From positions 1-64,000 of the IMG/VR virus record IMGVR_UViG_3300005095_000008: a stretch of DNA of 64,000 nucleotides; one strand, given 5' to 3'. This DNA is from a virus. A model generated the notes under the pieces. That model worked only from the letters and a program-made list of their open reading frames with translations. It had not been told where the DNA came from and ran no database searches. A program made the position numbers and the translations under genes. This document shows positions 2,739-63,710 of the stretch, piece by piece. The first letter of the stretch is position 1; each line of letters begins with the position of its first letter.

Positions 2739-2882
2739 TAGTTTTGGTGGAGAGAACGGATTGTTCTCTTCTAACCATTTAGGAGCAAAATACTCCACTG
2801 CTGTATAAACCATAACAGCCGTTAAATAAGCTGCTGTTCCTAGAATTGTTAGTAATCCCATATTTAATGCTAATTCTAACAT
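2730..2882 (-). CDS. small membrane protein, 50 aa (not in the ORF track)
   Basis: MLELALNMGLLTILGTAAYLTAVMVYTAVEYFAPKWLEENNPFSPPKLEE; ATG overlaps the upstream stop (TAATG); one hydrophobic segment. Confidence 0.65.
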   Translation of the reverse strand: MLELALNMGLLTILGTAAYLTAVMVYTAVEYFAPKWLEENNPFSPPKLEE

Positions 2883-3190
2883 TATGCGGCTCCTTTCAGC
2901 TGTGCTCTTGTTCTATAACGCTTAACGCGCAATTCTAGTTCGTCTAAAAGTTTCTTCTTCTTAGCAGACGGAATGTCTGCATTTTTGATCTCTTTTGACT
3001 CATCGAAAGCGATGCTAAGCGCTTCCTCAAAGTCTTCAACAATGATTGGTTCTTCCGTATGCGGGAAGAATATTTTCTCTCCGTTTTCAAAAGTCACATG
3101 TAGCGCATTATACGTTCCATCGATCATCGCGTCTAAAAGACGCGCTGCGCCTTCCTGTACAGAAGGTGTATAGCTTTCAGTATTTAACAT
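2882..3190 (-). CDS. hypothetical protein (putative early gene)
   Basis: AAGGAG SD; early-type motif at 3225-3237. Confidence 0.75.
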   Translation of the reverse strand: MLNTESYTPSVQEGAARLLDAMIDGTYNALHVTFENGEKIFFPHTEEPIIVEDFEEALSIAFDESKEIKNADIPSAKKKKLLDELELRVKRYRTRAQLKGAA

Positions 3191-3316: not shown

Positions 3317-5743
3317 ATGAAAATTACAAAACTTATATTGCATAAATATAGACGATTTATGCTCAATAACATCACTACGATTGAATACACACCAGACGCA
3401 AAGATTCAACTCATTGCTGGAACAAATGGTAGTGGTAAGTCATCGCTACTCGCTGAACTCTCTCCTCTTCCTGCGAATATCAAACTTGAGTTTTTAGAAG
3501 GCGGTTATAAAGAGATCTATATCGAACACAATAATAGTCAATACACACTCATCAGTGGTAAACTTGGTGCTGGTAAGCATCAGTTCATTGTAGACGGTAT
3601 TGAACTCAATGACGGTAATACGAAACGCGTGCAGCTCACTCTCTGTCAACAACACTTTAAACTCACGCCAGAACTCCACGAGATACTCATCGGTAGAAAG
3701 AGTTTTACATCTATGACAGTCGGTGATAGAAAACGTTGGCTATCGTCGCTTTCTACAGTAGATTACGACTATCCAATCAATATCTTTAATAAACTCAAAA
3801 TAGAGCGTAGAGATATCATTGGTGGCATTAAACTATTGAATACAAAGATATCTGCGTTAGAAACATCTATCGTATCAGAAGAACAACTCAATTATTGGAA
3901 AGAAGAGCATTCTCTTTTGAAAGAGACTATAGAATCACTTATCGCTATGAAAGAGAGTGGTTCTCTCACAACTAACTCTAATGCTAAAGAACAACTGAAG
4001 TTAAAGAGTAGACAGCTAGAACATGCGCTCTCATTTGTGAAGAAGAAAACGTCGCTAGAACTCTTAAAAGAGAAAGAGCATCAATTAGAGTTAATTAATA
4101 CTGAAATTAAACATATACTCAAACAGATAGAAGATGCTAAGAAACTTGAAGAGTCATCTGTAGATGAATTAGTAAAAGAATATACAAAACTCTCTGAAGA
4201 GAAAACAAAACTAGAAAGTAGTTTTACGTATAGCTTTCCTATAGAAAATGCAGAAACCGTTTATCGATTCTTTAAAGATAACCATTTCACTATTGTAGGA
4301 TACTTAAATAGACTCTCTGAATTTAGTGCTGTTAATTTAGAAGTAGAGCACATTAGAATGTTTAAAGATAGACTTGATAAGTGTGAACGATATAAAACAC
4401 AGATACAAACTCTGTTAGAGAGAAAGTCTAAAGTCTTACATACATTAACAGCAAATAAGAATAAACCTGAAATAGAGTGTAATAAGTGTGGTAATCGATG
4501 GAGAGATGGATTCGATGAAATGCAATATAGAGAAGTGCAAAATGAAGTAGAATCTCTGATTTCTAAACAAAACCAGAATGAAAAGATATTAACAGAAACA
4601 AAACATGCTCTAGAAGAGATAGAAACAGCCCAAAAACTATTAAACGATTTAAATGGATATATTGGTATGTCTAACATAGTAAAAACGTTTTATGAGGCAA
4701 TTCTTGAAAAACATAATTTAACACTTCCGACTGATGCGTCTCTATTAATCACAACAATCGAAGCAGAAGTAAAACAGTTAGAGGTATTTGTAGACTATAA
4801 TAAGATAGTAAATGAAATAAAAACATTAGCAGATAAGATTGAGTATCATAAACGATTAATGTCACAACTACAAAATATGAATAATGTGAATAGTGAACTA
4901 TTACACGATAAATTAGCAAGACTGTACGCAAATCAGAAGACATTAAATTACGATATCAAAGAGATGAAAGAAGCACTCTATCAGTTAGACAGAATTGAAA
5001 CACTCAAGAATGAAGTGAAACAACTCTTAACAATACTAAAACAAGAGTATAAAGAGAAACAGAAAGATAACGATAACGTATACTATATGAACGTCATACG
5101 GACTGCGAAAGCATTACTCTATGAACTAGAAGAGAAAATTCATAAAGCAAACAATGCAAATGAGAATTTGAAAGAACTCTCTAAAGAACTAAATGAGTAT
5201 ACTACCAAGAAGAGAGTCTTAGAAGTAGGCATAGATGCCTTATCTCCTACGAAAGGTTTGATTGCGAAATCTATTCTATCATTCCTTGGTGTGTTTGTAA
5301 ATAATATAAACCATATCATTAATCAGATATGGAGTTATAAGATGGAACTCTTACCTCCAGAGATTAGTGAAAAGAATGAATTAGATTATAAGTTTAGAGT
5401 CAACGTAGAAGATGTCAATACGATTGGTGATATTGGAATGGTCTCTAGTGGAATGGGTGAAGTCATTAATTTAGCATTTAGAATGGTAGTAATGCATTTA
5501 ATGGATATCAATGATTACCCATTGTATCTGGATGAATATGGAAGTAAGTTTGATCCTGTACATAGAGAGACAGCATATACAATTGCAAAAGAGTTGAGTT
5601 ATGATTATTCACAAATTTTCATGGTGAGCCATGCACAAGAGAGTTTTAGTTTGTATCAAAATGCAGACTTGATTATTCTTAGTGATGATAATTTATTCAT
5701 GGCAGAGATTACTGGTTATAATACAAAAATAAAAATAACATAG
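3317..5743 (+). CDS. sbcC: SbcC/Rad50-like SMC ATPase
   Basis: Walker A GTNGSGKSS, coiled coils with a CNKC zinc hook, signature VSSG, Walker B LYLDE, H-loop VSH. Confidence 0.92.
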   Translation: MKITKLILHKYRRFMLNNITTIEYTPDAKIQLIAGTNGSGKSSLLAELSPLPANIKLEFLEGGYKEIYIEHNNSQYTLISGKLGAGKHQFIVDGIELNDGNTKRVQLTLCQQHFKLTPELHEILIGRKSFTSMTVGDRKRWLSSLSTVDYDYPINIFNKLKIERRDIIGGIKLLNTKISALETSIVSEEQLNYWKEEHSLLKETIESLIAMKESGSLTTNSNAKEQLKLKSRQLEHALSFVKKKTSLELLKEKEHQLELINTEIKHILKQIEDAKKLEESSVDELVKEYTKLSEEKTKLESSFTYSFPIENAETVYRFFKDNHFTIVGYLNRLSEFSAVNLEVEHIRMFKDRLDKCERYKTQIQTLLERKSKVLHTLTANKNKPEIECNKCGNRWRDGFDEMQYREVQNEVESLISKQNQNEKILTETKHALEEIETAQKLLNDLNGYIGMSNIVKTFYEAILEKHNLTLPTDASLLITTIEAEVKQLEVFVDYNKIVNEIKTLADKIEYHKRLMSQLQNMNNVNSELLHDKLARLYANQKTLNYDIKEMKEALYQLDRIETLKNEVKQLLTILKQEYKEKQKDNDNVYYMNVIRTAKALLYELEEKIHKANNANENLKELSKELNEYTTKKRVLEVGIDALSPTKGLIAKSILSFLGVFVNNINHIINQIWSYKMELLPPEISEKNELDYKFRVNVEDVNTIGDIGMVSSGMGEVINLAFRMVVMHLMDINDYPLYLDEYGSKFDPVHRETAYTIAKELSYDYSQIFMVSHAQESFSLYQNADLIILSDDNLFMAEITGYNTKIKIT

Positions 5744-5746
5744 AAC

Positions 5747-5772
5747 CACACAGTAGCGTTTGCTACTGTGTG
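5747..5772. terminator. hairpin after sbcC / 3' end of the putative ncRNA
   Basis: cacacagtagc-gttt-gctactgtgtg. Confidence 0.65.
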
Positions 5773-5774
5773 AC

Positions 5775-6001
5775 TTCTAAATAGTTTTAAAAAGGAGTTG
5801 AGGCGCCTAGAGAAAATATAACAAAAAGGTAAAGTGGAGGTGATACCTTTATGACACTTTGTGTCGGTTGAATAAATAGTTTTCCATAGTCGTCTAAACA
5901 ATGGGAACCAAGGATGTGAGCAGACATGTCTAACTACTCACTAATTTATGTGGCATACTCATAAGCAAAAGGAAGACTTATGAAAAACTCTAGACGCCTC
6001 A
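5775..6001 (-). ncRNA. putative structured multi-hairpin ncRNA (unassigned family)
   Basis: 14-bp closing stem (5799-5812 with 5988-6001) enclosing five hairpins; three G-U wobbles work only on the minus strand; no credible ORF. Confidence 0.6.
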
Positions 6002-6041
6002 TAATAATAATATGCAAATGAATTATTTTTCAATTCGCTTG

Positions 6042-8552
6042 TTACCAATCGTCTACATTACCACCTGTCTCTTCATCATTTTCGTTATCGTCTGTTTTAG
6101 TCTCATCTCCTGTATCACCTTCATCTGTTTGAGGTGTCTCTTCAGTTTGTTGGTTATCGTTATAACCACCTTCATCTTCGTCATCGCCACCATCTTCATC
6201 AAACTTAGTAAAAACTTTTGTCAAGACTTTCTTAATCTTCTTATCTTTACGCAATGCAGGTTTCAAACCTTTTGCTAGCTTATCAAGATAGTCAATGTAT
6301 TCATCAAGTACGACAAACTCATATTTACTCTCATCTTCAGAAGAGTTCATAATCATAGTGTTCAACTCTGTCATATATCCATTATCGCGCATCCACTTTC
6401 TCAATAATGTATGGTATACTACTTTACGATACTCATCAATTCTATCACCTAAGTCACTTGCGAGTTCAGGTGTGATAGCATCTTCGCCAAGTACGGATTC
6501 AATAGCAGTCTCTAGATTATCTCTATAGTTTTCAAATGCTTGTGCTAGACCTTCATCTGTATTTGTTTCAATACCAGGCAATGCAATTTCAATATGCTTT
6601 ACGATATCGTTAATGATATAGTATACAATAGATTCATCTGTGAATGTATAGTCTGGGTTCGCATCTTCTAATCTCTTACGAATCTTATCTAAGTCATTCT
6701 TAACGATAGACTCTATATTTCTGAATAACATACCGTCATTTTTAATAATCATACGTACATGATTTGTTAAATGCGTTTGTAAAGTCATCTGTCTCTTTTG
6801 AATTCGTCTCGCTAGTAATGCATTATTCGTAATAATAGTAGCAGCAAACTCTACGTCTTTACCAGAATCTACGAGTTCAGGTGTGACTCCTAATGTCATA
6901 AGAATTCTATTTCTCATATCTTCTTCAAGAGACTCTTCTGGTTGCGTAATACTTCGAGAAACATCTTCTAAATCAATCTTAATGTTCGGTAGATTCGGAT
7001 GATTGAATTCATACATATATCCTAACTTATGTACCCATTGCGTTAAGTCATGTACATTCAAAATACCGATAGGCATCTCTAACTGTCTGTTCTTGAGCGT
7101 CTCTGCAATAATCCGCTCTTTCGTTCTTGCAGGGTCTGGATCTTTCTCATCTAGTTCGACCGTGAGTTTAGTCGTCGGAATACTATTCTTAATCGTACTC
7201 ATAATGTTACCAAACATAAGAATTGCTCTAATACTAGATAGAATAGACACTTTCTCTAGTAGTGATGCACCAGTACCATTGTTTCTATAATCGAATGCAT
7301 AGAACTGCACAATCTCTCTTGGTAAGAATAACATACGTGTCTTCTCGTGCTTCAATACTCTAGACAACATCGTTCTGTAGACATGTCGCACCATCGTTAC
7401 ATCAGCAATATCTTTTAACTCATCACTCTTTCGTAATACGTCTCTCAATCTTTTATCGATAATGTTATCATACATTACATCTAAATTCTTAAGAATTGTT
7501 GCTCGGTTGACTCTTTTATTCAATTCATTATTTGCTTTGTCAATGAGTGATGCTTTATAAACATCTATCAAGTCATTATCACTACCACTAAACCAATTAT
7601 CTCCTGCTACAATAGGGGAACCACTCGCATCAATGAGTACAAAATACCCTAAGTGTTCAGATGGGTCTCCAATAGCATGTACTGGAATCACAGACTCTAC
7701 AGGTAGCTTCATGACCAATGGAATTTCATCTGCTCTTAAGTTCGTCTCTTCAGCAGTAGTAACACCTAGGATTGGCGTACCTTTCGTCTCTTTTAATTTC
7801 CTAAATGCTAATTCAATATTCATATCTACATTATCGTCATATGCCTCTAGACCAATAGACATTTTTTTATGGATAGATTTTTCATTTATTTTACGCATCG
7901 CTGTCGGAACAGCTAACACTTCTAATCTATCTGTAAATTCAATTAACTCATTCACTTCTATCTTCTCTTCTAATAGACCTGCTTCTGTTTTAAACCTACT
8001 ATTCTCTTCGGTTTTAATATCAGAATGCCTTGGGAGCATAAAGTTTTTCTCTACGTATGTATCTACAAACTCTTCTACACCAACTTTATTTTTCTCTTCT
8101 GTAGAACGTTTAATGATTTCTGTTAATGCGTTATTAGGAATCAATGCTTCTATATACGCGCCTTTTGTAAAGAGTGCCTCTTTTACAATGGTTTCTAATT
8201 TACTCTCTAAACCATAGTTCTTATTGATGTGTTCTTCTATTTCTGTCAATAACAACTGGCTCGTATTAATAGACAATTCGCTATCGGTTAGTCGATAATT
8301 TAAATTTGTTGTCATCAAGTCTTTTGGTGAGATGATACTAGAGACTACAATGTCCATAGCTAAGTTTATATCTGGGAACAACTCTAATACCGATTCATTA
8401 TTTGTTAACGATGTAATAGTATTGTTACTAATCTCATTAAGGTTTACTTCATCTACAACAATGTCTTTCTTAGGTTTACTATCAGATTTTGTTTCTTGTG
8501 AAACGAGTTTATCTGAAAAGAATGGGTATTTTTTAACTCTATCTTTAGCCAT
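6042..8552 (-). CDS. portal protein (phiKZ gp129-like)
   Basis: 836 aa; motifs LFPDINLAMDIVVSSIISP, LPVESVIPVH..GDP..H.GYF and YAFDY...GTG.SLL; acidic tail; divergent from a gp128-like gene. Confidence 0.8.
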   Translation of the reverse strand: MAKDRVKKYPFFSDKLVSQETKSDSKPKKDIVVDEVNLNEISNNTITSLTNNESVLELFPDINLAMDIVVSSIISPKDLMTTNLNYRLTDSELSINTSQLLLTEIEEHINKNYGLESKLETIVKEALFTKGAYIEALIPNNALTEIIKRSTEEKNKVGVEEFVDTYVEKNFMLPRHSDIKTEENSRFKTEAGLLEEKIEVNELIEFTDRLEVLAVPTAMRKINEKSIHKKMSIGLEAYDDNVDMNIELAFRKLKETKGTPILGVTTAEETNLRADEIPLVMKLPVESVIPVHAIGDPSEHLGYFVLIDASGSPIVAGDNWFSGSDNDLIDVYKASLIDKANNELNKRVNRATILKNLDVMYDNIIDKRLRDVLRKSDELKDIADVTMVRHVYRTMLSRVLKHEKTRMLFLPREIVQFYAFDYRNNGTGASLLEKVSILSSIRAILMFGNIMSTIKNSIPTTKLTVELDEKDPDPARTKERIIAETLKNRQLEMPIGILNVHDLTQWVHKLGYMYEFNHPNLPNIKIDLEDVSRSITQPEESLEEDMRNRILMTLGVTPELVDSGKDVEFAATIITNNALLARRIQKRQMTLQTHLTNHVRMIIKNDGMLFRNIESIVKNDLDKIRKRLEDANPDYTFTDESIVYYIINDIVKHIEIALPGIETNTDEGLAQAFENYRDNLETAIESVLGEDAITPELASDLGDRIDEYRKVVYHTLLRKWMRDNGYMTELNTMIMNSSEDESKYEFVVLDEYIDYLDKLAKGLKPALRKDKKIKKVLTKVFTKFDEDGGDDEDEGGYNDNQQTEETPQTDEGDTGDETKTDDNENDEETGGNVDDW

Positions 8553-8591
8553 GTGAGCCTCACTTTTCTATTTTATTTTAAAAGGATTAAA

Positions 8592-10724
8592 ATGTTTTTT
8601 TCAGAACAATTTATGCTAGACACAATTAAGTTAGCAAAATCATTTGTGATATATTTACACGCAGAAGCGGTATCAGTAAATATAGAGTTGCAAAAGAAGT
8701 TCGGTACTACCTACCAATTTGAGAGTGAGAATATACTCACTTGGAAACACTATAAGAATATGATGGGTGAATTTCATGAGTTAGATACGATAACATTACC
8801 AGATGGTATTGACATCTTCGTACTCGAAATAGGTGAAACAAGAAAGTTAACAAAAGAGTTATTGGCAGAATATATTACAACACATGCAATTCTAAAAGAG
8901 ATGGATAAAGAGTATGACGAACTCATCGACAAGTATCCAGACTATGAGACATATATTAAAGGTGTTGTCTTTCCAGTTACGGAAGAACAAATTATTGAAG
9001 GTGTGGATGGTGAGATACTACAATACAATAGTAGATATGTAGAAGATCAAGAATACAGTCTTATTCGATCTGTAGAAGAACATTTAAAAAATCATATCGC
9101 TAGATGGCATGTAGCAGAGTATACATTAACAGATGAATTCTATATACCTGCCCTTATTGCGAGCATTACGTCAATAGCAACATTAAAGATTATAAATCAT
9201 AGACTCTCTAAACATGGTACAGAAGAGGCACACTCTACAATCATTATAGAGCACTTTAAGTCTAACTTAGCGATTCATGACGTTACAGATGTATTAGAAG
9301 ATGATGTAAGGTTATGGCTTTATAAAAATATTCGTTATATAATCAAACATATTGGTAAAGATAGTACACTAGATCTAATCGTGAAAGAGATTCTTAATAA
9401 ATCTAGCATTTTAACGAAAGAAGTGCTTGTAAAAAATAGCTTACCATATAATTTCAACAAGACAGATCTTACAAAACCATCATACACAAAGAAAACAGAA
9501 AATCTATTCTATGCTGTAAATGGCGATGTCAATAACATTATTTCCAATATTGCAAATGATACATTGCTCTATAAAGAAGTAAATGAAGAAACGTATGGGA
9601 CACAAGATTTAATCTTACAAGATGAACGTTATAGAGACTATCTTAATAATGCTGTTTCTAACCCAACAAATACGTTAGAACGTACAAAGGTAATCACACT
9701 AGAGTATGCAAATGCGTTCAATGTCTTTCCAGCAAACATGCCAGAGATAACTATTGAGAATTGGTTATATATCGCACTCAAATTTAGTCATAATGCGTTT
9801 AAAACATTTAAGGATAGTAATACACAAATAAATTACTATCTAAATGAAACTGATGCAGCATTGCTCGTTATTAAACACTTAATGGTATTAGCAAATAGAG
9901 ATAATGTGCCTGTAGATAAAATTACGTTATCTAATGTGCCAGACTACAATTTTAGTATGGATAACCTTATTATAGCTAATGCTGACGTGAAAGAAGACAT
10001 TACACGCATAGTGAATAAGATTGAACCGTATACAGGCAACAATAGCAAAGAACATATAGAATCGATTATTGATTTTTATAATACATTATGGGTATATGCA
10101 AATGATGACGATAATCCGATTAAGCGTTCCGATGTCTCTCTCATTTATGAAAGAATACGAAAACCTGTGACTATTTCTATTTCAGACACACCACAAACAA
10201 TAAACGAGATTACAAGCAATATCTATTTCAATTATAATGCTGATTATGATTATCGTGTTTCTATTGTAGAACTCATTAAGACATTTACTGGAATTAATGT
10301 AGATAAATTTACAGAGATTGAAGATATACTCACAAAGTTTAAGAATCTTGTAGACAGATTAACATCATATACCACACAAATATTGACAGATAATGCATTC
10401 GCTACTGTAAGCGCAGCTGTTGAAGACGTGGGTATTCTTTCTGACGCAAACATTATGACAATTAAAGATGGTGCATTCTATTGTTTAAATATGGTAGACC
10501 ATAATCTAGAACTTGAGGTCAATAATCATATTGACCAGATTATCGTGAGTCAAAATACAATTGCGAATGCACAACTAAATAACACCATTCCACCAGAGTT
10601 ATCTATGGAGATTATTTCTGGAGACATTCGTGAATTGAAAGTAGAAACAATGAGTCGTATGACAGAGGCGACAAATACAAATTATCTACCACACTCACTC
10701 CCATATCCACTTTCAGGAAGTTAA
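8592..10724 (+). CDS. virion structural protein (phiKZ gp128-like)
   Basis: TWKHYKNMMGEFH, LWLYKNIRYI...GK and LTSYT motifs; start moved to ATG 8592 (AAAGGA SD). Confidence 0.7.
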   Translation: MFFSEQFMLDTIKLAKSFVIYLHAEAVSVNIELQKKFGTTYQFESENILTWKHYKNMMGEFHELDTITLPDGIDIFVLEIGETRKLTKELLAEYITTHAILKEMDKEYDELIDKYPDYETYIKGVVFPVTEEQIIEGVDGEILQYNSRYVEDQEYSLIRSVEEHLKNHIARWHVAEYTLTDEFYIPALIASITSIATLKIINHRLSKHGTEEAHSTIIIEHFKSNLAIHDVTDVLEDDVRLWLYKNIRYIIKHIGKDSTLDLIVKEILNKSSILTKEVLVKNSLPYNFNKTDLTKPSYTKKTENLFYAVNGDVNNIISNIANDTLLYKEVNEETYGTQDLILQDERYRDYLNNAVSNPTNTLERTKVITLEYANAFNVFPANMPEITIENWLYIALKFSHNAFKTFKDSNTQINYYLNETDAALLVIKHLMVLANRDNVPVDKITLSNVPDYNFSMDNLIIANADVKEDITRIVNKIEPYTGNNSKEHIESIIDFYNTLWVYANDDDNPIKRSDVSLIYERIRKPVTISISDTPQTINEITSNIYFNYNADYDYRVSIVELIKTFTGINVDKFTEIEDILTKFKNLVDRLTSYTTQILTDNAFATVSAAVEDVGILSDANIMTIKDGAFYCLNMVDHNLELEVNNHIDQIIVSQNTIANAQLNNTIPPELSMEIISGDIRELKVETMSRMTEATNTNYLPHSLPYPLSGS

Positions 10725-20570: not shown

Positions 20571-20580
20571 AATAATATGT
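20571..20580 (-). promoter_or_regulatory. putative early (virion RNAP) promoter motif ACATATTAT
   Basis: motif recurs upstream of minus-strand accessory operons. Confidence 0.45.
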
Positions 20581-20656: not shown

Positions 20657-21970
20657 TTACTCTTCCTTTAATAAATTTATAAATGTGCCATTAATATCGT
20701 TCAATAAGTCTTGATATGTTCTAAATCTAATGCTTTGGTATTTTACATCAAGATTTGTCACGCCATTTACACTAATAACTACATCATCTTTATCTTTAAA
20801 CATATTCACGCGATGTCGTTTAAACAACATTTTAAATTCTGCAAATTCATCTGCCAATAGTTTAAACGACGGGTATATGTTTATATTATGAAGTTTTATT
20901 TTAAATTCATTAACTGTTTTTATAGGTTTTAATAACATACAAACATCACTTACTTTTGTTGACGTGACTACATATTTATATTTTTCTTTTTTAAGTACTG
21001 TTTTAATAATCAAAAGATATTTTAAAATAATTATATCTAACTTATATGTCTGTTTTTGCAGAGTAATTTCCATTTTAGATAATTCTTTAATTAATTTAAT
21101 ATAATATTTAACATCAATATCTAAAATGTCTATCGCATGTTTTGCGACGCCTGTTTTATAAATTAACCTCATATCTGAATTAATATCTGCAAATTTGTTA
21201 TTAATAATTAATGATTTTGTGGTTATTATGTTAAATTCTATAACGTTTGTCGTTATAATAGCCTCGACGCAATGATATTCTTCATAATCCAATTCTGAAA
21301 ACTCTAATGTATCAATATTAAGAATAATATTTAACAAATCGACATTATTGTTTATTTTAACGTCATAATTATTTAACATAATACAATCAAATGTTTTACA
21401 AATTGCTTTATCTCTAAGACCGTGTAAAATCACGTGCGTTGCTTGAACATGACGAATTTCTGTATCTTTTAATTTTGGCACAATAAAATTACCTAACTCG
21501 TAAATATCGTTGTAACCTATAGCTTCATAGATTGCTCTAAATAAATCGTTTTCTTTTATAAGCATCTTTTTTGATATGTTTTGTAATAGAATTATATCTA
21601 ACAGATCTATTTCGTGGTTCTGTGTTTGTAATAATTTTGTATTCGTTAGATCATAATAAGTATGTTCTATATCAGCAGATATACGTTCTAGTCCACTAAA
21701 AATAATGACAAATGAGTTGTTAAAAATAACACCGTCTGCTTCAAAAATCTTCAATAATTCTTCTGTTTTTATAAAAACAATATTATCGCCAGTAACTGTT
21801 ACGTTATCTTTTCTAAAAAACTTTTTTATAGGTTCTGATACTAGAGACATATGGATAGTCTCTGTGCCAACTTCCATACCATCTACAAGTATAAAAGTTA
21901 TATTTCCTTCAAAATTAAACTCTTTAAACAAAAGTGTTTCTTCAACGCCTACCGCCTTAACTATACACAT
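20657..21970 (-). CDS. very AT-rich hypothetical protein, paralog of 24225..25514
   Basis: 437 aa; N-terminal similarity IVKAVG...GDNIVFIKTEELL...NNS. Confidence 0.7.
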   Translation of the reverse strand: MCIVKAVGVEETLLFKEFNFEGNITFILVDGMEVGTETIHMSLVSEPIKKFFRKDNVTVTGDNIVFIKTEELLKIFEADGVIFNNSFVIIFSGLERISADIEHTYYDLTNTKLLQTQNHEIDLLDIILLQNISKKMLIKENDLFRAIYEAIGYNDIYELGNFIVPKLKDTEIRHVQATHVILHGLRDKAICKTFDCIMLNNYDVKINNNVDLLNIILNIDTLEFSELDYEEYHCVEAIITTNVIEFNIITTKSLIINNKFADINSDMRLIYKTGVAKHAIDILDIDVKYYIKLIKELSKMEITLQKQTYKLDIIILKYLLIIKTVLKKEKYKYVVTSTKVSDVCMLLKPIKTVNEFKIKLHNINIYPSFKLLADEFAEFKMLFKRHRVNMFKDKDDVVISVNGVTNLDVKYQSIRFRTYQDLLNDINGTFINLLKEE

Positions 21971-23292: not shown

Positions 23293-24147
23293 TTATAGCA
23301 AGTTTAGTTTTTCTTCATTTGTTAGAACATCTTCTTTAAACAGTTTAAAGTTTTCTCGTCCATCTTCAGACAGCTCATCGCCAAATTCAGACCGCACAAG
23401 ACGGCGTTCATAATCATCTAATAGATCAACGAAGACTTTAATCTTATCTTCGTCCTCCAAGTCAATAACGTCACCATCACCGATACGCTTCTCAAGTTGA
23501 GCAAGTTCATTAATAATTCTATTTGACATAGGATACATCGTCTTGTTATTCATGTTTTCTGCATACTTCTCTAAGACTCTGTTGAGTAGTGGTGTCAACT
23601 CTACTTTAAACTCTCCATCGTCTTTAAAGCTTATTGTAACAAAACGATCGACAAATGCTCTATCACCAAGGTCTGCAGAGTAATCATTGCCGATATTCAT
23701 TGTCGCAATGAACGTGAGTTTGTCAGCATCAATAACGATAGACTCTGTAATGGTATTACCCATGTCGTCTTTAACCGCTTTGTTTGTAGTCAACGTAAGT
23801 TTTCCTAAATTATCTGGCGTTAGTGTTGGAACCAGATAGTCCTTGAGTTCCTTTGGTACTCTACCGATTTCATCAAAAATCACACAGACGTCTTCACCTT
23901 CTCTAGCGCGAAGGAATGCTTGCGTTAATGGACCTGCTGCGTATTCCATGCCACCTACTTCGTTACGTAGCCACATACCAATCGTGTATGTTTCATCGGT
24001 ACTACTTGTACCGTTAATAACAAAGATATTGTTCTCTTTGTAGTTCTCTCTAGCCCATTCATATGTAGTATATGTCTTACCAATACCAGCGTCTCCAGTA
24101 ATGATTACTGGTTTTAAACCTTTATATAGATTCAACTTTTTTTTCAT
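23293..24147 (-). CDS. MoxR-family AAA+ ATPase
   Basis: Walker A GDAGIGKT, GPL..A, Walker B IFDEIGR, sensor IATMN, DRAFVDRF. Confidence 0.9.
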   Translation of the reverse strand: MKKKLNLYKGLKPVIITGDAGIGKTYTTYEWARENYKENNIFVINGTSSTDETYTIGMWLRNEVGGMEYAAGPLTQAFLRAREGEDVCVIFDEIGRVPKELKDYLVPTLTPDNLGKLTLTTNKAVKDDMGNTITESIVIDADKLTFIATMNIGNDYSADLGDRAFVDRFVTISFKDDGEFKVELTPLLNRVLEKYAENMNNKTMYPMSNRIINELAQLEKRIGDGDVIDLEDEDKIKVFVDLLDDYERRLVRSEFGDELSEDGRENFKLFKEDVLTNEEKLNLL

Positions 24148-24206
24148 GCTATTTTCCTTTTTAACTTTAAACTATTTAGATACTTTGTATCACCTCATAA
24201 CTATGA

Positions 24207-24217
24207 ATATAATATGT
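24207..24217 (-). promoter_or_regulatory. putative early promoter motif ACATATTATAT
   Basis: identical 11-mer at 25547-25557 and 34067-34077. Confidence 0.55.
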
Positions 24218-62789: not shown

Positions 62790-62809
62790 AGCGTCTCCGA
62801 TCTTCAAGT

Positions 62810-63680
62810 TTGATTTTGACTAAGTTATCAAACAAAGGAATTTTTGAAGAATTTTATTTCTCACACAAAAGAACTCTTGGCAAATTTATTCTCTAGGTCA
62901 TCAGACCATCCTCATCAAACAATTTTCAAAATTCTCTTACTATAAATCGCGCGGTCACGCGTGTGCGTGTGCGCGGTTCAAAGATAATATTTAATAATAA
63001 ATTATTAAATATATTATATAAATATATCAAAGATATTAATTATCTAAATTAATAAATTAATTTATCTAATTAAATAACAACTAAAGAATAATATATATAC
63101 TTAAAGAAAAAGAAAAAGACTCTATGTATATATATATTAACGTAGTTAATATATATATACATAGAGTCCAAAAGAAAAAGAATTTTTTTAGAAAAAAAAA
63201 TTCTAAAAATCTCTATTTAGTGATGAGTCAAAAGGATTTCTGAAAGAGAAATCCGTTGAAAATTTAGAGAAAATAAAAAATCTAAAGAATGTCTATTTAG
63301 TGAATCTCTCGAATTAGAAAAGATAAAATTGAGAAATGAAATTTCGAAAGTTTAGATTTGAGAATGAGAGAACAGAAGTCAAACTGAATTTAGAGTGTCG
63401 AATCGACACTCGATGATTTTGACTCTAGATGTGAAAATAGTATTAAAATAGTAGAATTATAAATTGAGTATATAATTTAGTATATGTTTAAATTAACAGA
63501 ATGGTATCTAGAATCCATTTTCATAGGCTTACTAATATGAAGACATAGGTGAAGTACTTAAAACGATTTAAGGGTGATTTTTAAGAGTAGTGATTTAAAG
63601 TGAAATCGTTGACAGATATTTGTTTTTATTCGTTCAAAAGTTTCTTCTTTTGAATAAAAACAAATATAAAAAACAAGAGA
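62810..63680. other. large non-coding region, putative replication origin
   Basis: GC-rich patch, then an extremely AT-rich stretch, a 24-bp-arm perfect inverted repeat and further hairpins. Confidence 0.5.
63118..63168. repeat. perfect inverted repeat with 24-bp arms and a 3-nt loop
   Basis: gactctatgtatatatatattaac-gta-gttaatatatatatacatagagtc. Confidence 0.95.
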
Positions 63681-63710
63681 TAGATACAGACCAAAATGGT
63701 CTGTATCTAT
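63680..63710 (-). terminator. hairpin plus T-tract
   Basis: atagatacagacc-aaaat-ggtctgtatctat. Confidence 0.7.

Follow-up and report, generated by a model that had tools for sequence, protein, structure and literature searches.

In staphylococci, RNAIII, RsaE and the icaR 3' untranslated region (3'UTR; motif UCCCCUG) have been described as exposing, in hairpin loops or in a 3'UTR, pyrimidine-rich motifs that pair with Shine-Dalgarno (SD) sequences, block translation initiation and create a substrate for RNase III (PMC3868564, in excerpt). The c4 antisense RNA of phages P1 and P7 carries complementary segments in its loops and blocks the ribosome-binding site of a phage mRNA (PMC12197685, in excerpt). 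Gram-positive bacteria have STAB-SD elements, SD-like sequences near the mRNA 5' end that do not start translation; these stabilize mRNAs, binding the 16S rRNA 3' end and blocking RNase J1 (PMC4113751, in excerpt). In the phiKZ-like phage 201phi2-1, 11 small RNAs (sRNAs) of unknown function have been reported, three of them intergenic and one conserved upstream of a tail gene; the excerpted text of that report describes no sRNA at the 3' end of a portal gene (PMC11512511). Here we describe an element located in the 298-nt gap (5744-6041) between two convergent open reading frames (ORFs), one SbcC-like and one portal-like, in IMG/VR virus record IMGVR_UViG_3300005095_000008. The stretch analyzed, hereafter the window, comprises the first 64 kb of this 87,030-bp record (G+C 34%), and its coordinates are used throughout unless genome positions are specified. 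The sequence supports fairly well the presence in this gap of a structured non-coding RNA gene, read from the minus (portal-sense) strand. The fold, the promoter and terminator signals, the conservation in a relative named L002, the clustering and exposure of anti-SD segments and the preference for early-gene leaders reported below are results of computation.

Fold and predicted promoter and terminator of the element

The complete gap (5744-6041) folds with a z score of -7.03 on the minus strand and -4.47 on the plus strand, and 0 of 200 shuffled sequences fold as well on either strand; this agrees with a preliminary description of the locus, which had proposed a folded RNA and asked for this comparison of strands. 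With the terminator excluded (5773-6001, 60 shuffles), the scores are -5.88 and -2.69, respectively. Ten other intergenic gaps of the record were folded in the same way, a 903-nt gap being left out for its length, and 19 of the 20 strand-folds gave scores from -1.99 to +0.36. The exception (-5.08), the only other gap with a strong fold, corresponds to a group I intron outside the window (genome 72978-73257, minus strand; L075 8978-9257), which matches RF00028 with 92.5 bits and an E value of 6.8e-23; the ORFs that flank it, 71988..72935 and 73246..74415, are probably two exons of one gene.

Folded from 6000 to 5735, the minus-strand RNA forms a wheel in which a closing stem, P1, encloses five to six hairpins and is followed by an unpaired tail and a terminator hairpin. 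P1 pairs GAGGCGUCUAGAG (5988..6000) with CUCUAGGCGCCUC (5800..5812) over 13 bp; a closing stem of 14 bp had been proposed, and its additional pair, U6001-A5799, is only possible. The hairpins inside are returned by the fold at the coordinates previously assigned to them. Hairpin H1 (5958..5984, 8 bp) displays the loop CUUCCUUUU (5967-5975) with a probability of being unpaired, P(unpaired), of 0.94; it is followed by the weak hairpin H2 (5947..5957, 4 bp) and by H3 (5916..5941, 8 bp), whose loop UUAGACAUGU (5924-5933) has a P(unpaired) of 0.80. The next region (5877..5915) comprises the junction AUCCUU (5910-5915) and the three-part hairpin H4 (5910-5877; 5+4+3 bp). After the small hairpin H5 (GACAC/GUGUC, 5853..5865, 5 bp), H6 (5825..5850, 7 bp) presents the loop UCACCUCCACUU, with UCACCUCC at 5836-5843, at a P(unpaired) of 1.00. 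The 24-nt tail AACUCCUUUUUAAAACUAUUUAGA (5776..5799) is single-stranded, with a P(unpaired) of 0.97 over ACUCCUUUUUAAA, and leads into the intrinsic terminator (5724..5775), a hairpin of 12-14 bp (5773-5746) followed by a U-rich run; the terminator overlaps the SbcC stop codon. As had been noticed, several positions can form G.U pairs only on the minus strand, among them 5994/5806, 5936/5921 and 5773/5746.

The element belongs to no curated RNA family. An Rfam search of 5000-7000 with E values up to 10 gave five matches, all far under their gathering scores, and the only one touching the gap was a Tetrahymena snoRNA model (18.7 bits against a gathering score of 100). At the gathering score, no Rfam match was obtained in the whole 64-kb window or in the corresponding gap of L002, and ARAGORN found no tRNA or tmRNA.

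Special attention was given to the signals that bracket the fold. A motif, ACATATTAT(A/T)T, recurs in the record, where it is enriched in intergenic regions and oriented with the downstream genes; the form CATATTAT has 14 sites in 87 kb, 10 of which are intergenic, and 9 of these lie on the minus strand upstream of minus-strand genes. In the extended form ACATATTAT(A/T)T-N3-T-(A/G), a T followed by a purine occupies positions 15-16 in 12 of the 13 minus-strand sites judged intergenic, a spacing that suggests a fixed start site. The sites at 20580, 24217, 25557, 31610, 34077 and 40000 of the window are among these 13. The copy that reads into the element, GCATATTATTAT (6004..6015, minus strand), stands just upstream of P1, in agreement with the early-type motif previously placed there, and carries a G where the motif has its first A. 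Each jumbo phage has been described as carrying, ahead of its early operons, an AT-rich motif of some 10 nt centered near -10 (PMC7598289, in excerpt), and the motif of the element appears to fit this description of an early promoter, of the kind used by the virion RNA polymerase. Because the element, with GCATATTATTATTATG at 6015-6000 of the minus strand, keeps the T-purine spacing of the other sites, transcription is predicted, from this spacing together with PMC7598289, to start at G6000, exactly the first base of P1. The same region holds a putative -35-like hexamer, TTGAAA (6028..6033, minus strand), which had been read as a late-type TTGAA, and a sigma-70-type match, TTGAAA-18 nt-TATTAT (6033-6004, minus strand), that agrees at 10/12 positions.

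At the opposite end, where a closing hairpin had been seen at 5747-5772, a terminator scan found its only site in the gap, a 14-pair hairpin with a T-rich tail at 5775-5744 of the minus strand. The second terminator-like site of the scan (5332-5311, minus strand) lies inside the SbcC gene; no plus-strand site was listed by the scan at all, and no early-type motif was seen on the plus strand at the gap. Transcripts of the portal gene meet no terminator from the portal stop (6042) to 5773 and must therefore include the element as a 3'UTR. The element also appears to have the two marks expected of an sRNA gene, a promoter directly upstream and a terminator on the same strand at its 3' end.

Anti-Shine-Dalgarno segments and complementarity to leaders

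The SD-like words AAGGA, AGGAG and GGAGG were counted in 230-nt intervals over the whole record and on both strands. Four such sites within 230 nt occur only at the element, on either strand of the 87 kb: 5 of 8680 plus-strand intervals reach this number, all of them at the element, and 0 of 8680 do so on the minus strand, with a plus-strand background of 0.8 per kb. In the minus-strand RNA the complements of these words, CUUCCUUUU, AUCCUU, UCACCUCC and ACUCCUUUUU, have mean P(unpaired) values of 0.94, 0.75, 1.00 and 0.97, so the exposed anti-SD-like segments that had been reported on this strand are recovered; when the plus-strand RNA is folded, three of the four words themselves are mostly paired (P(unpaired) 0.35-0.44). 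The sequence GGAGGTG/CACCTCC is found once only in 87 kb, in the H6 loop, and in the upstream regions listed most ribosome-binding sites of the phage itself read AAAGGA(G/T). We take AUCACCUCC of the H6 loop and UCACCUCCUUU of the L002 tail to match the textbook 3' end of 16S rRNA. As modeled, the RNA thus presents what is expected of an anti-SD RNA, namely single-stranded, pyrimidine-rich segments complementary to SD regions.

Complementarity was evaluated against a set of leaders defined as the -80..+6 regions of 82 ORFs, counting segments of at least 10 nt. The minus-strand RNA has 9 distinct complementary segments, a number that 0 of 1000 dinucleotide-shuffled sequences reach (mean 2.7, maximum 8), and the plus strand has 2. 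Every exact match given in the preliminary description was found. A 10-nt exact complement joins the element to the leader of 2882..3190, and GAGGTGATAC is complementary to the leaders of 23293..24147 and 30588..31535 and, in addition, to a third one, that of 64933..65775, outside the window. The 12-nt complementarity of TCTAAATAGTTT is present, as are 13 nt with the leader of 20657..21970 and 11-nt complements with those of 2882..3190 and 33526..34032. When all leaders are ordered by their duplex energy with the exposed segments, the 10 leaders that carry the early motif occupy ranks 0, 1, 2, 6, 9, 11, 13, 42, 75 and 80 of 82 (Mann-Whitney p 0.0095). There is genuine complementarity to leaders, which peaks for those with an early promoter, but it exceeds that of controls only moderately.

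A leader module is found on the minus strand at 24148-24217 and 31536-31610 of the window and at genome 65776-65847, in three unrelated early genes. Its elements follow a fixed order: the promoter motif, the predicted start, GAGGUGAUAC at about +7, a hairpin, (U)CUAAAUAGUUU and an AAAGGA site. The hairpin, GAUACA..UGUAUC, has a variable loop and is followed by CUAAAUAGUUUAAA before the real AAAGGA site. The H6 loop is the exact complement of GAGGUGAUAC, and the tail is complementary to the last two elements of the module. It had been cautioned that generic SD complementarity inflates some of the matches; those beyond it rest largely on the thrice-repeated module and are not independent. Two other early-motif leaders were found in the 36.8 kb of L002, neither of them with the leader module of the window.

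Two simpler relations were considered and rejected. Pairing of the tail in cis with the SD of the portal gene itself finds no specific complementarity in the portal leaders, AAAAGUGAGGCUCACAUG in the window and UUUAGGAGUUAAUCAUG in L002. A plain duplication of a leader does not account for the element either, as the two leader motifs stand in the opposite order in it, on either strand, compared with the leaders. Elsewhere in the window, a 903-nt AT-rich stretch (62808-63710) without an ORF of at least 50 amino acids is richer on both strands than any other part of the record in 10-mers complementary to leaders; it carries two copies of the motif ATATATTAT (63009+ and 63096-) and may hold small genes or further RNAs.

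Relatives, a strain variant and the genomic context

Four close portal homologues were present in the protein collection, with identities of 57, 57, 55 and 49%. Portal searches with a single protein gave no relatives among viral and metagenome contigs; with the alignment A1 they gave 6 and 22 loci, including one close relative (L002, the same as L008), the rest being at most 39% identical. No locus was obtained with A1 in genome contigs or with the SbcC-like protein in viral contigs. Two DNA motif scans returned 35 and 4 stretches, and both motifs were present only in L053, which is the L002 contig. L002 is the only close relative compared as DNA; this 36.8-kb IMG/VR contig shares the gene order of the window, and its portal is 57% identical.

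The gap of L002 measures 186 nt and contains, in portal-sense order, the 20-nt block CATATTATTATTATGAGGCG, a P1 of 10 bp, an interior of 62 nt, a tail and a terminator hairpin. The 20-nt promoter block is identical in the window and L002. The L002 tail (ACCUCCUUUUUAGAAAAC / CACCUCCUUUUUAGAAAAC) has CGCCUCACCUCCUUUUUAGAAAAC at the same place as the tail of the window, and the CUCCUUUUU tail is shared. Positions 1-6 of P1 are identical in both. At position 7, U.G in the window is U-A in L002, a one-sided change; at positions 8, 9 and 10, C-G, U-A and A-U in the window are U-A, G.U and U-A in L002. P1 therefore shows three both-sided changes and one one-sided change with no broken pair between these two comparators, and the G.U pair of the L002 stem likewise forms only on the portal-sense strand. 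The covariation proposed as a check on the structure is accordingly seen in P1 only, the inner hairpins not being alignable to L002. The L002 interior resembles that of the window only after reverse complementing, and weakly (score 23, reached by 9 of 500 shuffles).

In 18 more distant loci, with portals at most 37% identical, this position holds 43-141 nt, mostly a bare hairpin; the promoter, wheel and tail are therefore an addition in this small clade. A search of the distant record G002 for a 16S-like word pattern gave 7 one-mismatch hits, compared with 6 for the reversed control, and hence no analogue. One distant group (L003, L016, L018 and L027, at about 8572-8718) has a portal-downstream gap of around 140 nt, whose opposite strand carries an 11-codon ORF, read by eye, behind AGGAG; this feature has nothing to do with the element.

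A strain variant of about 97% identity was available as DNA contigs in runs X1 and X2 of one 2025 study. Within the span of the RNA, 12 substitutions together with 7 deletions (18 nt) separate the X1 variant from the window. At 5806, 5936, 5976 and 5773, a wobble possible only on the minus strand in the window is a Watson-Crick pair in the variant; at 5806 in P1, C>T converts U.G to U-A, and at 5936 in H3, A>G converts U.G to C-G. When refolded, the variant retains P1 (10-11 bp), H1 (9 bp), H3, H4, H6 (6 bp) and the terminator. The region of AUCCUU and H4, the H6 loop and the tail are the same in X1. The change at 5954 (C>T) breaks H2, which is lost, and H5 appears dispensable because indels remove it. 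The five displayed segments and the 40-nt stretch containing the promoter are free of these differences; a rough calculation puts the probability that they all miss the 56 displayed nucleotides at about 0.02. The terminator loop at 5758-5761 reads GTTT in the window and AAAC, its exact reverse complement, in X1/X2 with the stem intact, which indicates that this loop is flipped between strains.

Taken together, the best-supported reading of these comparisons is a conserved core composed of the promoter, a stem that would lock the 5' end and a single-stranded anti-SD tail before the terminator, the window's phage having apparently expanded the interior with further anti-SD loops.

Regarding the genomic context, coding sequence makes up 92% of the 87-kb record and intergenic sequence 8%. 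The portal-like ORF (6042..8552, minus strand, 836 amino acids) matches PHROG 3004, a virion structural protein, with an E value of 9.5e-134. A tblastn search with its product gave matches in 257 records to the portal-type protein of phiKZ-like jumbo phages, the best cultured match being Bacillus phage AgentSmith (35.5%); one homologue bears the annotation portal. The SbcC-like ORF (3317..5743, plus strand, 808 amino acids) belongs to PHROG 77. The phage is a phiKZ-like jumbo phage, presumed virulent, and its host is probably an AT-rich, Gram-positive bacterium. The gap between the two genes, as anticipated, has no credible ORF: it contains only two, of 46 and 61 amino acids on the minus strand, and neither matched a PHROG or Pfam family. 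Mini-ORFs read by eye on either strand of the gap are not conserved in L002, and the ATG of a 6-codon mini-ORF on the plus strand is affected by deletions in the X1 variant. The element is present as a single copy, with no second one in 87 kb, and blastn with 5600-6200 as query matched nothing in the phage collection.

Proposed role, rival explanations and known systems

We tentatively favor the interpretation that the element is a phage sRNA that doubles as the portal 3'UTR and acts through pairing with SD sequences or leaders. According to this proposal, an RNA of about 255-260 nt would be transcribed from the minus strand, starting near G6000 from the early-type (virion RNA polymerase type) promoter motif and ending at the intrinsic terminator (5773-5746), and late portal transcripts would carry the same sequence as a 3'UTR. 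The wheel would lock the 5' end in the 13-bp P1, enclose the hairpins and leave the 24-nt tail free before the terminator hairpin, so that four unpaired pyrimidine-rich segments, CUUCCUUUU, AUCCUU, UCACCUCC and the tail ACUCCUUUUU, are displayed. These would base-pair with SD regions and with the shared early-leader module (5'-proximal GAGGUGAUAC, hairpin, UCUAAAUAGUUU, AAAGGA), and the pairing would compete with 30S subunits, lowering the translation or stability of early phage mRNAs, host mRNAs, or both. The expression of the RNA, its exact ends, its targets and its effect are deductions from sequence. The multi-target antisense RNA of the preliminary description is supported in part, as a discrete structured unit with a predicted pairing preference for early leaders; what does not hold is conservation of its inner hairpins in L002.

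A bolder version, which we consider unlikely, is that the RNA mimics the 3' end of 16S rRNA, with a stem and a single-stranded ...CACCUCCUUU-like tail, expanded in this phage to four displayed copies, and that, made from an early promoter, it competes with the 30S subunit for SD sequences. It builds on a resemblance of the displayed segments to the 16S rRNA 3' end. Ribosomes would be stripped from the STAB-SD-like 5' stabilizers (GAGGUGAUAC) of phage early mRNAs, and the stripped mRNAs would be open to a 5' exonuclease or to RNase III, which would time the switch from early to late expression. Alternatively, the mimic could act against host mRNAs with strong GGAGG sites, which are absent from the phage's own ribosome-binding sites, or it could be a decoy drawing off a host nuclease directed at UCCUU or anti-SD sequences. 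In the main texts of the collection of papers searched, we found no description of a phage RNA imitating the 16S 3' end or competing for STAB-SD elements.

It is important to consider the observations that weigh against an anti-SD or leader-pairing RNA. The excess of complementary segments holds against shuffled sequences but less well against real ones, since 1.3% of 3266 control windows without leader overlap also reach 9, most of them in one AT-rich gap. When leaders are split into zones the excess shrinks: the SD zone alone has 2 segments where 0.92 are expected (457 of 2000 shuffles reach the observed value), and the upstream zone alone has 5 where 1.83 are expected (77 of 2000). The top three targets share one leader module and amount to about one observation rather than three independent ones. 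The interior of L002 is 62 nt long instead of 175 nt, lacks the anti-SD loops and cannot be aligned in the same orientation, and the AAAUAGUU words of L002 are sense-oriented, which is at odds with a conserved function of that word as an antisense segment. The gap differs from the X1 variant by 13 substitutions and 18 deleted bases in 298 nt while the adjacent 444 nt of SbcC have no difference, so the overall constraint on the gap is loose. The X1 variant also folds about equally well on both strands, for which reason the strand assignment leans on the promoter, the terminator and the 4 versus 1 wobble changes, a split that by our own arithmetic is not significant alone. The comparison comprises one relative and one strain variant, with covariation in a single stem. 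Finally, an anti-SD sequence of a generic kind could have an effect only in a highly abundant RNA, and the repression of early mRNAs by an RNA from an early-type promoter is not an obvious design.

Some of these observations would be equally expected if the region were only a structured 3'UTR and terminator, one that stabilizes the portal mRNA against 3' exonucleases and insulates the convergent transcription units, with the anti-SD words and the leader matches being incidental and no separate RNA acting in trans. Portal transcripts must include the region in any case, distant relatives have only the terminator hairpin at this position, the interior varies between relatives and strains, and the zone-split statistics of complementarity are weak. 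This explanation nevertheless seems somewhat unlikely to us, because it leaves aside a 20-nt promoter block that is identical despite 57% portal identity and is the same in the strain variant, a predicted start exactly on the first base of P1, the conservation of the single-stranded tail between P1 and the terminator, and a four-word anti-SD cluster that is unique in the record. A DNA-level element or remnant is another candidate, in the form of an invertible inverted-repeat segment, the scar of a mobile insertion or decayed early-leader modules, the stems then being palindromes. The reverse-complemented terminator loop of X1/X2 shows that hairpin flips occur in the lineage, the L002 interior resembles that of the window only when reverse-complemented, the plus strand at 5775-5797 resembles the early-leader module, with AAATAGTTT plus an SD, and the element is an insertion relative to the distant relatives. 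We hold this to be quite doubtful, however, as the element is single-copy in 87 kb, the C.A mismatches of the stems in DNA terms become G.U pairs only in the minus-strand RNA, the plus-strand SD-like word is conserved in both phages though no usable start codon follows it, and the segment lies between a promoter and a terminator of the same orientation.

The two other roles suggested in the preliminary description fared less well. A functional plus strand, as an extension of the SbcC 3'UTR that serves as an SD-like or GGA decoy for the 30S subunit or for a CsrA-type protein, would account for the four SD-like words within 230 nt that are unique in the record and for AAAAGGAAG, exposed on the plus-strand fold with a P(unpaired) of 0.90, and the variant's plus strand folds as well as its minus strand. 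The decoy is disfavored, and we regard it as very improbable: no early-type motif was seen and no terminator listed on that strand, a transcript of this strand would enter the portal gene in antisense, of the four words, all with GGA, three are mostly paired, the plus-strand z score of the window is much weaker, L002 has a single SD-like site, and no Csr/Rsm family was matched in Rfam. As for a phi29-like packaging RNA (pRNA) bound to the portal, only the position beside the portal gene and the multi-helix fold speak for it. The absence of an Rfam match at E values up to 10, an interior that is not conserved in the nearest relative and the 43-141 nt found at 18 distant loci leave this role without support and make it extremely unlikely; phiKZ-like phages are not known to use a pRNA.

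If expressed, the phage sRNA acting by anti-SD or leader pairing would be a candidate on which regulation at the RNA level, of translation or of mRNA stability, could be tested in phiKZ-like phages, giant phages that run their own transcription program and whose shut-off of early messages is poorly understood. The candidate offers a predicted promoter, predicted ends, a conserved seed and predicted targets, including three early leaders that resemble Gram-positive 5' stabilizers. If the region were only a structured 3'UTR, the finding would be an ordinary one.

Compared with known systems, the element is like phi29 pRNA in being a multi-hairpin RNA next to packaging genes, and, if read from the plus strand, like the CsrB/RsmY/RsmZ sponges in its repeated GGA words; unlike pRNA and Csr/Rsm RNAs, it has no Rfam hit in the region at E values up to 10, and the strand signals and pairing probabilities argue against a Csr/Rsm-type plus-strand reading. 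It shares with c4 the presentation of complementary segments in loops, but c4 is processed from an operon of a temperate phage and has one dedicated target (ant), whereas here several generic anti-SD segments would face a shared leader module. The likeness to STAB-SD concerns the proposed targets and not the element itself, since three early leaders carry GAGGUGAUAC about 7 nt from their predicted start. Like the sRNAs of 201phi2-1, the element would be a short unit of a giant phage bounded by a start site, here predicted, and a terminator; unlike them, as those sRNAs come from cappable-seq of Pseudomonas phages and are mostly derived from 5'UTRs, it is known from sequence alone. By analogy, the element would work most like the staphylococcal anti-SD RNAs and 3'UTRs, with which it has in common several exposed anti-SD words and a possible double existence as a stand-alone RNA and a 3'UTR. 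It has no sequence or Rfam relationship to them, its motif is CUCCUUU/CACCUCC and not UCCCC, and it is encoded by a jumbo phage. If the proposal is true, anti-SD regulation, known from staphylococcal RNAs and 3'UTRs, would extend to a virulent jumbo phage.

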